A DNA stretch of 64,000 nucleotides from NCBI GenBank assembly GCA_028288585.1, contig JAQBNL010000021.1:9221-73220 (forward strand), in the 5' to 3' direction. The translations under genes and the position numbers were made by a program. Shown here in pieces: positions 18,031 through 20,703 of this stretch. Position 1 is the stretch's first letter, and every line of letters begins with the position of its first letter. The stretch comes from Chitinophagaceae bacterium. GTDB taxonomy: Bacteria; Bacteroidota; Bacteroidia; Chitinophagales; Chitinophagaceae. Below the pieces are notes generated by a model that was not told the DNA's origin, ran no database searches, and was given only the letters and a program-made list of their open reading frames with translations.

Positions 18031-19290
18031 ATGATACAAATAAACGGGAACAGCATTACCGAACGGTTCATGAGATATGTGCAGATCGATACGCAAAGCG
18101 ACCCTCAAAGCAATGCACAGCCAACCACCCAAAAACAAAAAGACCTAAGCAAAATATTGTTGTCTGAATTACAACAAACCGGCATAACAGCAGAGCTGGA
18201 TGAGCATGGATATGTGTATGCAACAATTCCTTCCAACACTGATAAAAATGTTCCAATCATTTGTTTTTGCAGCCATGTTGATACAGCGCCTGATTGCAGC
18301 GGAACCAATGTAAAACCTATTCTTCATAAAAATTATAGTGGAGAAGATATTATACTGCCCGATGATAATTCACAGGTTTTAAAATTATCAGAGGCTCCCT
18401 ATTTAAAACATCATATTGGCAGTGATATAATTACTGCAAGCGGAAATACTTTGCTAGGCGCAGATGATAAAAGTGGTGTAGCCGCCATTATGGAAGCCGC
18501 TTCTTATTTAATAAACAATCCTGACTTAAAACATGGAGAGATAAGAATTGTATTTACCCCTGATGAAGAAGTGGGCAAAGGCACTGCGAAAATTGATATG
18601 CAGAAAGTAAATGCAAAGTTTGGTTATACATTGGATGGCGGCGAAGCAGGTAGTTTGGAAGATGAAACCTTTAGTGCGGATTTTGCAAGTATAATTATTA
18701 ATGGTGTTATTGCTCACCCCGGTTATGCAAAAGGTAAATTGGTAAATGCCATAAAAATTGCAGGAGAAATTTTAGATACGCTGCCAAAAAATGAATGGGC
18801 GCCTGAAGTAACAGAAAAGAAAGAAGGCTTTGTACATCCTGTAAGAGTTGAAGGAATTGCAGAGAGAGCAACAGTAGAATTTATCGTTAGAGATTTTGAT
18901 AATGATAAATTGAAACAGCATGGCGAAAGATTAAAAAAACTTGCAGAAGATGTAATGAAAAAATATCCTGGAGCCACAATGGAGTTTACAATTAAAGAGC
19001 AGTATAGAAATATGAAAGGAGTTTTGGATAAACATCCTGAAGTGGTTGCCTATGCTGCAGAAGCAATCGAACGAACAGGATTAAAAGTAAAGACCGAAAG
19101 CATCCGGGGCGGCACTGATGGAAGCCGGCTTAGTTATATGGGTTTGCCTTGTCCGAATATTTTTACCGGCATGCAGGGCATACACTCAAAGCTGGAATGG
19201 ATAGGTGTAAAAGATATGGTGAAAGCTTCTGAAACGATTGTGCATTTAAGTATGATTTGGGAGGAAGCCCCACCAAACCTCCCCCAATAG
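18031..19290 (+). CDS. pepT: Peptidase T (tripeptide aminopeptidase, M20)
   Basis: SHVDTA, LGADDKSG, FTPDEEVG, YTLDGG, IRGGTDGSRLS, PNIFTG. Likely start 18031. The last codons come from a repeat element. Confidence 0.96.
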   Translation: MIQINGNSITERFMRYVQIDTQSDPQSNAQPTTQKQKDLSKILLSELQQTGITAELDEHGYVYATIPSNTDKNVPIICFCSHVDTAPDCSGTNVKPILHKNYSGEDIILPDDNSQVLKLSEAPYLKHHIGSDIITASGNTLLGADDKSGVAAIMEAASYLINNPDLKHGEIRIVFTPDEEVGKGTAKIDMQKVNAKFGYTLDGGEAGSLEDETFSADFASIIINGVIAHPGYAKGKLVNAIKIAGEILDTLPKNEWAPEVTEKKEGFVHPVRVEGIAERATVEFIVRDFDNDKLKQHGERLKKLAEDVMKKYPGATMEFTIKEQYRNMKGVLDKHPEVVAYAAEAIERTGLKVKTESIRGGTDGSRLSYMGLPCPNIFTGMQGIHSKLEWIGVKDMVKASETIVHLSMIWEEAPPNLPQ

Positions 19291-19421: not shown

Positions 19422-19452
19422 CTTCTCTTTTGGAGAGGGAATGAGGGTGAGG
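19422..19452. repeat. REP-like hairpin
   Basis: CTTCTCTTTTGGAGAGGGAATGAGGGTGAGG; same CTCT..GGAGAGGG..GAGG pattern as at 14313 and 24481. Confidence 0.55.
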
Positions 19453-19458
19453 CTAAAC

Positions 19459-19502
19459 GAAACAATTGTGCATTTGAGTATGATTTGGAAGAGAAGGCAT
19501 AA
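19459..19502 (+). pseudogene. Orphan second copy of the pepT 3' end
   Basis: 28/30 nt identical to 19231-19260, with both differences at third codon positions. Continues as TGG-AA-GAG-AAG-GCA-TAA, which reads WEEKA* if one G is restored. Confidence 0.75.
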
Positions 19503-19636
19503 TGGTTACGGCTTGGCAGATGCGGGGGTATTAGGAAAACGTCAGCCGTTGACCAAAGCCAAATTAAAAAACTAATGTTGAACAATTTCCTTTTTTTACA
19601 ATCGGCTGCTTTATTGTTGTTGATGTGCGAACTGAT

Positions 19637-20554
19637 TTAGATCTGGAAAGGACTTTTTTTTACATAAAAAGATATGAATTTGTCACCTGTCTTTAGCCAT
19701 GATATTGTGCTTGAGATTAAATTAAGACCGCCTGGTGTGTGATTTACAATTCCTAAATGTGCTGATTTAGGATTTCTAATATTTTTCATTGGGATAAGCC
19801 ACATTCCTGCACATTTAAATGCTCTGTCAAGAGCTACGACTATTAAATAGTCAGCAGATTTACCGTCAAGATTGTTTAGTCGCCTTGCTTCACTTAGCCG
19901 TCGGCCGCTTTTATAAACCCGTCTCGTTTTGATTTCAAACGTCAAACCGTTTTTATGCCGTGCATCAATACCTTTTTCAGTTTTATTACTGCTGATTTCT
20001 AAATCTAAGTGTCTGCAAGCATAAAACTCTCCGATGTCGCCTACAATTCGTCGGCTTCTTATAATTCCATTTTCTTCAAGTTCAATATAAGCTTTGGCAA
20101 ATTCGCTTATTGCCTTTTTTTCTTTTGTTGGTAATTTGATTTCTGATTTACCAATGACTTCAATACCTGAGTTTAAATATGAAGAAGTAACAAGAATTTT
20201 TCCGTCTTTAATTTTATTAGAGGGAATACGAACAATTTTTATCGGACAATAGTTTCGGTCAAAATATACGATTACTAAATAATGAAAGGAAGTCGTGTCA
20301 AGTTTGCCAATATTGTAATTGAAATTATTATTGGATACAACTTTAGCTTTCACTTGATAGTTATTACCTAATTCACAAACTCCGTCTATAGCTCTTGTTA
20401 CCCGGTCTGACTTTTTAAGCTTGAAATGTCTGCAAGCAACATATTCTCCAATTTCGCCGGTGAAGCTGTCTGTAGTAGTGATGTTTAAGTTAAACAGTTG
20501 GTCACTAAGATCTGCAAACTTGTCAAGCAATTCTTCTTGTCGCTTTGTGAACAT
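19637..20554 (-). CDS. Tandem two-domain PD-(D/E)xK nuclease-like protein (DUF6998-like)
   Basis: Internal duplication: TGEIGEYVACRHFKL..RAIDG..YQVKA and VGDIGEFYACRHLDL..KGIDA..FEIKTR. Confidence 0.7.
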   Translation of the reverse strand: MFTKRQEELLDKFADLSDQLFNLNITTTDSFTGEIGEYVACRHFKLKKSDRVTRAIDGVCELGNNYQVKAKVVSNNNFNYNIGKLDTTSFHYLVIVYFDRNYCPIKIVRIPSNKIKDGKILVTSSYLNSGIEVIGKSEIKLPTKEKKAISEFAKAYIELEENGIIRSRRIVGDIGEFYACRHLDLEISSNKTEKGIDARHKNGLTFEIKTRRVYKSGRRLSEARRLNNLDGKSADYLIVVALDRAFKCAGMWLIPMKNIRNPKSAHLGIVNHTPGGLNLISSTISWLKTGDKFISFYVKKSPFQI

Positions 20555-20703
20555 AGTGATGGTTGTGATAAGCTTACCGCTAATTCGTGAATTTACGAAA
20601 CTCTAATATAATATATTTCGCAAAGGAACTCAAATGAGGTTGATTAAAGAGTAAAATGCTCCCTATATAAATATCACTACCTTGAGTAAAATTTATAACT
20701 GCA

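Follow-up and report, generated by a model that had tools for sequence, protein, structure and literature searches.

The 64,000-nucleotide stretch of DNA analysed here, which we call the window, belongs to contig JAQBNL010000021.1 of a Chitinophagaceae bacterium (GenBank assembly GCA_028288585.1), and carries on its minus strand, at 19637..20554, an open reading frame (ORF) for a 305-residue protein (P0001) whose codon positions were confirmed directly. The gene lies between pepT and a gene for an SPFH/Band-7 protein, both of which are on the plus strand, and the wider neighbourhood comprises folD, queE, an OmpA/TPR protein gene, dprA, a cupin gene, exbB/exbD and prmC. A first-pass annotation had described this gene as antisense to its housekeeping neighbours, as is indeed the case, and its product as a tandem nuclease with two different active sites. 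Here we describe the architecture of this predicted nuclease, its relationship to the BisI family of restriction enzymes, its distribution, and the readings of its function that these observations favour or disfavour.

Duplicated nuclease domains and two intact active sites

The protein is an internal duplication of a DUF6998-like nuclease, as the first-pass annotation had proposed. Residues 1–142 and 143–305 share 26% identity over 120 residues (BLASTP, E 1e-12), the alignments of the two halves match each other in a profile–profile comparison (hhalign, probability 98.3%, E 1.7e-14), and a trace of the duplication persists at the DNA level, where the paired segments are spaced by 417 nt, equal to 139 codons, and encode the peptides GDIGEFYACRH and GEIGEYVACRH. 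Pfam DUF6998 (PF22522) matches in two stretches (66.1 bits against a gathering cut-off of 27, E 3.9e-18); PDDEXK_16 (PF25941) was seen only as a faint precomputed match on homologues, and an NCBIfam profile search of the 305-residue protein gave no match. The protein belongs to the wider DUF6998/PDDEXK_16 superfamily.

A word-index search matched 282 homologues (clusters at 90% identity) at E ≤ 0.001, and the term orphan, which had been applied to the gene at first, is thus appropriate for the lack of a methyltransferase and not otherwise. The 120 homologues listed cover 92–100% of the query at 58–84% identity (BLASTP); most of them originate in metagenomes of Bacteroidota, and a single one in a Clostridiales metagenome-assembled genome (MAG); among the matches listed, the named records of the family read hypothetical protein or DUF6998 domain-containing protein. 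In an exhaustive search of representatives at 50% identity we found ∼20 near-full-length tandem clusters, down to 37% identity, and beyond them many single-domain proteins of ∼140–180 residues that match mainly the C-terminal half (C-half). Mean column identity in the family is 80% for the C-half versus 68% for the N-terminal half (N-half).

The two motifs that had been read from the sequence, E..D..Q-V-K followed by E..D..E-I-K, correspond to E37/D57/Q67-V-K69 and E176/D197/E207-I-K209 (Table 1). In an alignment of 132 homologues, E37, D57, Q67 and K69 are kept in 132, 131, 132 and 132 sequences, and E176, D197, E207 and K209 in 131, 132, 132 and 131, respectively. The difference between the sites is itself fixed in all 132, with Q67 never replaced by Glu and E207 never replaced by Gln. 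Both sites align to E49/D69/Q79/K81 of Eco15I, the residues that were mutated to obtain its 'catalytic mutants' (PMC11347163). As QxK is the normal catalytic motif of the BisI family (PMC11347163), the ExK half is not to be regarded as more canonical than the QxK half; ExK, the classical variant, is that of the second half, and both variants are present among the single-domain relatives.

The relationship to the BisI enzymes is also apparent from profile and structure searches. The PADLOC model mREase_II, for Type II methyl-directed restriction enzymes, matches both halves (C-half, E 1e-24; N-half, E 1.4e-11), and defence-annotation models already flag the protein. The only sequence relatives in the whole PDB are Eco15I (E 2e-8) and NhoI (E 1.4e-4; phmmer), both of which depend on 5-methylcytosine (m5C); profiles built from the single halves find Eco15I (N-half, E 7e-9; C-half, E 4.8e-9), and that of the N-half also finds NhoI (E 3e-6). 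An AlphaFold2 model, built from a 20-sequence alignment (pLDDT 88.5, pTM 0.84), has a helix–helix–beta-core pattern in each half. Its best Foldseek match in the PDB is the engineered single-chain PvuII (3ksk; 295 of 305 columns, E 1.8e-9, TM-score 0.47), followed by Eco15I and NhoI chains, each over one half (TMt 0.61–0.70), and then by PvuII and DpnI, PvuII being the closest conventional enzyme to the BisI family (PMC11347163). These matches agree with the restriction-endonuclease-like fold that had been suggested, and the PADLOC matches, together with the m5C-dependent nature of the only solved sequence relatives, lend support to the reading of the gene as a restriction nuclease. We consider it very likely that the protein is a two-site DNA endonuclease of the BisI/PvuII fold.

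The alpha0–alpha1 linker contacts the minor groove in NhoI and Eco15I; Asn42 of NhoI is a minor-groove sensor of G:C, and Arg84 of NhoI is part of the external methyl pocket (PMC11347163). In the window protein, the N-half linker contains D29, invariant in 132 of 132 homologues, and the C-half linker, unlike that of the N-half, is rich in arginine (R166 in 128, R168 in 120 and R169 in 116 of the 132). The position of Arg84 is occupied by Lys71 in the N-half and by R211, again invariant (132/132), in the C-half. Long invariant segments run through the family (IIRSRRIVGD, KTRRVYESGRR.SETRRLNNL and NPKSA.L..VN.T). When the methyl-pocket and base-contact residues of the BisI enzymes are mapped onto each half by sequence, the catalytic region is clean and the C-terminal hairpin region does not map: in the methyl-pocket region, SDHVNAHIVN of Eco15I and SQHVRGYTVY of NhoI stand against NPKSAHLGIVN of the C-half and KIKDGKILVT of the N-half in an ambiguous register, and the ungapped position in the C-half is K-(I/V) in most homologues and G268-I269 in this protein.

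Table 1. Positions of the gene, its domains and associated features in the window
Feature	Position	Strand	Remarks
Gene for the predicted single-chain tandem BisI-like/DUF6998 nuclease	19637..20554	-	305 codons + TAA; DUF6998 and mREase_II match in two stretches each
N-terminal nuclease domain, residues 1–142	20129..20554	-	helix alpha0 4–22, helix alpha1 31–43, beta core (AlphaFold2 model)
C-terminal nuclease domain, residues 143–305	19640..20128	-	helix alpha0 143–161, helix alpha1 170–183, beta core
Active site 1, E..D..QxK	20348..20446	-	E37 (20444–20446), D57 (20384–20386), Q67 (20354–20356), K69 (20348–20350)
Active site 2, E..D..ExK	19928..20029	-	E176 (20027–20029), D197 (19964–19966), E207 (19934–19936), K209 (19928–19930)
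N-half alpha0–alpha1 linker, residues 23–31 (LNITTTDSF)	20462..20488	-	D29 aligns with NhoI Asn42
C-half alpha0–alpha1 linker, residues 164–171 (IIRSRRIV)	20042..20065	-	R169 aligns with NhoI Asn42
DNA-level duplication trace	20007..20041, pairs with 20424–20458		80% identity; repeat family D2
A8 homopolymer (T8 on plus strand), core/tail junction	19654..19661	-	coding sequence ends just after
Weak sigma-70-like promoter match, TTGAGT-17-TATATT	20605..20633	-	∼50 nt 5' of ATG; not above shuffle expectation, and the scan does not cover Bacteroidota promoters

An accessory gene without a partner methyltransferase

No DNA methyltransferase was found within ∼6 kb of the gene, in agreement with the first-pass annotation; the only methyltransferase nearby is PrmC, which carries a PrmC_N domain and methylates protein. 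The neighbourhoods examined were the window, 11 other homologue loci and one 7.4-kb plasmid, and none of these has a dedicated or operonic DNA methyltransferase. Given this, the housekeeping nature of the neighbouring genes and the identity of PrmC, a classical restriction-modification pair with an overlooked methyltransferase was rejected.

None of the 40 related genomes searched, among them those of 24 congeneric species, has the gene, and neither has any of 400 further genomes of the phylum, drawn from 180 genera. In one congener (G019) the site is empty, with 151 bp between pepT (74% identical) and the SPFH gene (88% identical) at locus L002. The distribution is that of an accessory gene, and a core or housekeeping nuclease was rejected on the basis of this absence from 440 other phylum genomes and of the empty site. 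The exact insertion breakpoints could not be placed, as the nearest congener has diverged too far in this intergenic DNA. A second congener (G018, L003 2475–2876) has an ORF for a 133-residue PIN-domain protein in the same slot, and the slot, filled in G018 and empty in G019, is a hot spot in which small accessory genes have landed repeatedly.

The further claim that repeats border the gene holds for the 3' side, where a duplication of the pepT 3' end and a 26-nt element are present, and fails for the 5' side (20555–20703), no part of which recurs elsewhere in the genome. The repeat search of the window and the genome gave no pair of direct or inverted repeats that would bracket the gene; a mobile-element bracket or flanking repeats were rejected, the repeats being confined to one side and consisting of the pepT duplication and a REP-like element. 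Within this 3' region, the last 11 pepT codons (ETIVHLSMIW..) occur twice, at 19231–19263 and 19459–19491, 228 bp apart and with 91% identity. The second pepT end would read ..IWEEKA(stop), counting one lost base, the congeners end in ..IWEE(R/K).., and the live pepT ends in ..EEAPPNLPQ(stop). The 26-nt element (19432–19457) lies just upstream of the second pepT copy and is 100% identical on contigs C95 and C8.

There is no conserved neighbour in the 11 other homologue loci. A 78%-identical homologue lies in a dense defence island (L005 1–10230) that includes pP_pnuc, flanked by AbiGi, a GmrSD_N-like gene and hypothetical ORFs on one side and by a complete EcoRII-Vsr-Dcm cassette (EcoRII-C, Vsr and a Dcm-type methylase) on the other. 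At one locus a full GmrSD gene is the second gene away from the homologue, the intervening one being CoiA_N; GmrSD is found near homologues once in full and once, weakly, as its N-terminal domain. Two homologues are next to or near a KilA-N gene, one is inside an integrative mobilizable element that encodes Mob_Pre and an integrase, and those at the remaining loci are among insertion sequence (IS) elements or simply housekeeping genes. A 338-residue member, 57% identical to the window protein, is carried by plasmid NZ_CP103186.1 (L018 1053–2069), a mobilizable 7.4-kb plasmid hosted by Parabacteroides distasonis and Phocaeicola vulgatus that has btgB, rep and a RelE/HTH pair, without a recognisable methyltransferase. 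A phage origin was rejected, since 50,697 phage records gave no tblastn match and the fold matches in BFVD are only generic single-domain nucleases. The gene is rare, horizontally acquired, of the defence type and devoid of a partner methyltransferase. As separate observations, members of the family are carried on mobile elements in gut Bacteroidales: the plasmid-borne member adjoins a 277-residue protein without a Pfam match, and another member, P0102 (L016/L017, 6001–7179), has a 98-residue N-terminal extension and stands in an integrase/Mob_Pre/KilA-N/VapE element (55 blocks of the collection).

A predicted pseudo-dimer, its likely target and its relation to known enzymes

Our results are consistent with a monomeric pseudo-dimer, in which two diverged BisI-type subunits would be joined head to tail. 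The alpha0 helices (4–22 and 143–161) would pack as in the BisI dimer and form the floor of the DNA channel, with the alpha0–alpha1 linkers (TTDSF in the N-half, RSRRI in the C-half) turned towards the minor groove. Strand beta3 would bring the QVK site of the N-half to one DNA strand and the EIK site of the C-half to the other, so that a single bound molecule would break both strands inside its site or beside it. Since the halves differ in their DNA-facing residues (D29 versus R169, K71 versus R211), the recognised site is probably asymmetric, in a Type IIT-like organisation.

It is most likely that the enzyme cuts only modified DNA, probably DNA containing 5-methyl- or 5-hydroxymethyl-cytosine, because the gene travels without a cognate methyltransferase. 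Its role would then be defence, of the Type IIM or a Type IV-like kind, against phages or plasmids with modified DNA. Modification dependence is also probable from the family relationship, from the PADLOC match and from the lack of a partner methyltransferase even on the 7-kb plasmid. Most BisI homologues likewise have no methyltransferase of their own and share their hosts with C5 methyltransferases that differ in specificity, as BisI does with a Dcm-like methylase (PMC4926085). Taken as a whole, with modification dependence included, the reading of the protein as a single-chain BisI-like pseudo-dimer is the one that we favour, with moderate confidence.

Several observations weigh against this reading. 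Similarity to the characterised enzymes is remote, at 22–26% identity, and the function of every member of the tandem family is a prediction, the named records bearing hypothetical or DUF6998 names only. The model sets the two halves roughly like the subunits of the PvuII/BisI dimer, but as its full-length TM-score to single-chain PvuII is only 0.47, this inter-domain arrangement is no more than suggestive. The (H/R)(V/I/T/M) di-residue of the methyl pocket is not recognisable in either half, in a region where the alignment is ambiguous and contains a 4-residue gap, and the window copy has lost a C-terminal tail that 51 of the 132 homologues carry. Two BisI homologues, Bce1273I and Bth171I, cut unmodified DNA (PMC4926085), and family membership is therefore no guarantee of modification dependence. 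Finally, the host has a C5 methyltransferase of its own, the only one with PF00145 (416 residues, intact; G000 contig C40, locus L012 3001–8366), which may set the host's own m5C pattern and whose presence beside the nuclease gene in one genome has a precedent in BisI and its Dcm-like methylase, and the 78%-identical homologue lies beside a Dcm-type methylase; given these two cases, m5C dependence, if any, must be specific to context.

The unrecognisable pocket motif and the two homologues that cut unmodified DNA would suit a modification-independent, rare-cutting nuclease, for example a homing-endonuclease-like selfish gene or a weapon between mobile elements, with a long asymmetric site that is read by the two different halves and absent from the host genome, so that no methyltransferase would be needed. 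The gene stands alone between housekeeping genes without an integrase here, and likewise at L021 and L014, as such a gene might, but the insertion site differs in every locus examined and there is no common target gene. The 56–84% identity among the listed homologues, over many hosts including the Clostridiales MAG, fits a recent spread; however, phages, the typical home of free-standing homing endonucleases, yielded no match in 50,697 records, and homologues have Type IV enzymes and further defence genes as neighbours. The PD-(D/E)xK homing endonuclease I-Ssp6803I is among the fold matches (Foldseek rank 31), yet from two half-domains as small as these a short site is to be expected, the BisI dimer reading the 5 bp of GCNGC, and the absence of such a site from a 3.3-Mb genome is not to be expected. 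A rare cutter of this kind is therefore an unlikely explanation.

The predicted modification-dependent pseudo-dimer can be compared with four groups of enzymes. NhoI and Eco15I are homodimers of PD-QxK (Mrr-like) nucleases, in which the catalytic glutamate is on alpha1 and the Q/E-x-K motif on beta3; they pair through the N-terminal alpha0 helix, place the QxK strand on the scissile phosphate and cut inside GCNGC with two to four methylated cytosines (PMC11347163). Their paired subunits surround the DNA, with one strand cut by each. With the BisI family (BisI, NhoI and Eco15I; PDB 8q5m, 8q5n, 8q5o and 8rpx) the window protein has in common the fold, in which alpha0 precedes the core, the E..D..(Q/E)xK residues in both halves, and the arginine two residues past the catalytic lysine (NhoI Arg84), which is kept as R211 in the C-half. 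The genetic setting is also shared, namely a solitary, horizontally mobile gene with no partner methyltransferase. However, the BisI enzymes are homodimers of 150–190-residue subunits acting on the near-palindromic GCNGC, whereas this protein is one 305-residue chain, the halves of which are 26% identical, differ in their DNA-facing linkers and lack a recognisable methyl-pocket motif. To our knowledge, every BisI-type enzyme characterised so far is a symmetric homodimer and requires a near-palindrome with two to four methyl groups. A tandem or fused architecture is not mentioned in the BisI-family literature searched, and no mention of DUF6998, PDDEXK_16, PF22522 or PF25941 was found in the literature searched. 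The fused two-site architecture appears to be new among BisI-like enzymes; single-chain restriction enzymes and Type IIM enzymes are already established.

Natural single chains with two different catalytic sites, the Type IIT enzymes, recognise asymmetric sequences (PMC4081073). Similar to Mva1269I, BsrI, BtsCI and AciI, the window protein has two non-identical catalytic sites, presumably one per strand, but unlike these enzymes it consists of a single domain type in two copies and is not accompanied by a methyltransferase. Several Type IIT fusions are said to combine different nuclease types. In single-chain PvuII, two PvuII-like subunits are also joined head to tail in one polypeptide; that enzyme is artificial, has identical subunits, is not modification-dependent and acts on a palindrome, whereas the fusion described here is natural, of a single origin across the family, and has diverged halves. 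The LAGLIDADG endonucleases, which exist as homodimers (I-CreI) and as single-chain pseudo-dimers (I-SceI, I-AniI), offer an analogy, in that the halves of a homodimeric nuclease, once duplicated and fused, are free to diverge and to read an asymmetric target, although the fold and the biology are unrelated and the likeness goes no further. If the favoured reading is correct, methyl-directed restriction would be extended to asymmetric sites by a natural single-chain enzyme, and inactivation of one site would be a direct route to strand-specific, methylation-dependent nicking enzymes, useful for the mapping of DNA methylation.

Apart from this comparison, the host C5 methyltransferase on contig C40 is itself clustered with Vsr, with a 753-residue protein that has two HATPase_c-type domains (HATPase_c_3) and with a 356-residue protein without a Pfam match, and this cluster may be an unusual methylase-linked system.

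Tail variants, the poly-A junction and the history of the fusion

The tail of the 51 homologues mentioned above consists of a basic low-complexity linker of 60–90 residues and a C-terminal transmembrane helix (for example, ...GCLVGTIMIIVILYLLGMLLE). These proteins, which include P0004, P0007, P0011, P0020–P0029 and P0065 (alignment A5), would be tail-anchored, membrane-tethered nucleases of the restriction type, and with such isoforms one may ask if the cell envelope is where some restriction enzymes act. Seventy of the 132 members are almost tail-less, with <20 residues past residue 296, and many tail-less homologues end a few to ∼20 residues past a KK(K) junction in unrelated short endings. 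In the window gene the junction coincides with the A8 homopolymer, and the +2 frame past this tract (19545–19653) encodes a basic, linker-like peptide of 31 codons (KKVLSRSKSVRTSTTIKQPIVKKG...) that weakly resembles the tails of P0004 and P0011 (tblastn E 0.004–0.005 with a 409-nt target). This pattern suggests recurrent frameshifts or slippage in the poly-A tract, and such slippage could switch between anchored and soluble forms; phase variation, mutational decay and assembly error are each candidates that may account for it. Independently of the +2 frame, the frame past the TAA codon stays open in phase for 111 more codons, to 19301.

Were mutational decay the cause, the gene might be a remnant without current function, its tail lost through a frameshift at A8 and other scars lying beside it. 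The weak resemblance of the +2-frame peptide to the P0004 and P0011 tails and the decayed pepT 3' copy 150 bp away are in keeping with this possibility, but nothing interrupts the frame of 305 codons, and none of the eight catalytic residues has been lost. The closest homologues, P0002 and P0003 (84% identical), are tail-less as well, and since they share this state with more than half of the family (70/132), the short form is common and apparently viable. We regard a decaying remnant as very improbable.

The tail also bears on the possibility of a latent toxin or abortive-infection effector, that is, a nuclease held inactive by its localisation or by an unknown trigger and degrading DNA non-specifically upon infection. 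A basic linker with a transmembrane helix does suggest controlled localisation, but specific recognition, as opposed to non-specific degradation, is indicated by the long invariant segments that face the DNA, and the nearest relatives of known activity are restriction enzymes with sequence specificity. The single-gene system is found beside AbiGi in one island and beside the RelE/HTH toxin–antitoxin pair on the small plasmid, and the same chromosomal slot holds a PIN-domain ORF in congener G018; nevertheless, the 11 other loci examined have no conserved partner, antitoxin or sensor gene in common, and an effector of this type seems improbable. The modification-dependent pseudo-dimer remains the reading that we prefer. 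Its extension to a whole family of monomeric, two-site methyl-directed enzymes that would read an asymmetric modified site, perhaps sensing one strand, with ∼40% of the members anchored in the membrane and a poly-A switch between anchored and soluble forms, is put forward tentatively, and we think it rather doubtful in this complete form.

The history of the fusion was followed in a maximum-likelihood tree of half-domains that contains the halves of 23 family members. The N-halves form one clade (support 97/98), as do the C-halves (100/96), and the C-half clade groups with single-domain proteins (98/79). As each set of halves forms a single clade, the fusion happened once, at the base of the family. 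In this restriction-enzyme fold as a whole, the step from homodimer to fusion has occurred naturally at least three times, and the homodimer-to-pseudo-dimer step known from the LAGLIDADG enzymes, and imitated in single-chain PvuII, would thus be a natural one here as well.

Further tandem DUF6998 proteins, independent of this family, were noted. P0241 has a degenerate second copy without the catalytic motif, P0161 and P0174 are independent tandem proteins in which ExK comes first and QxK second, and in P0167, another independent tandem, the two halves are sister to each other and nearly identical, which indicates a recent duplication.

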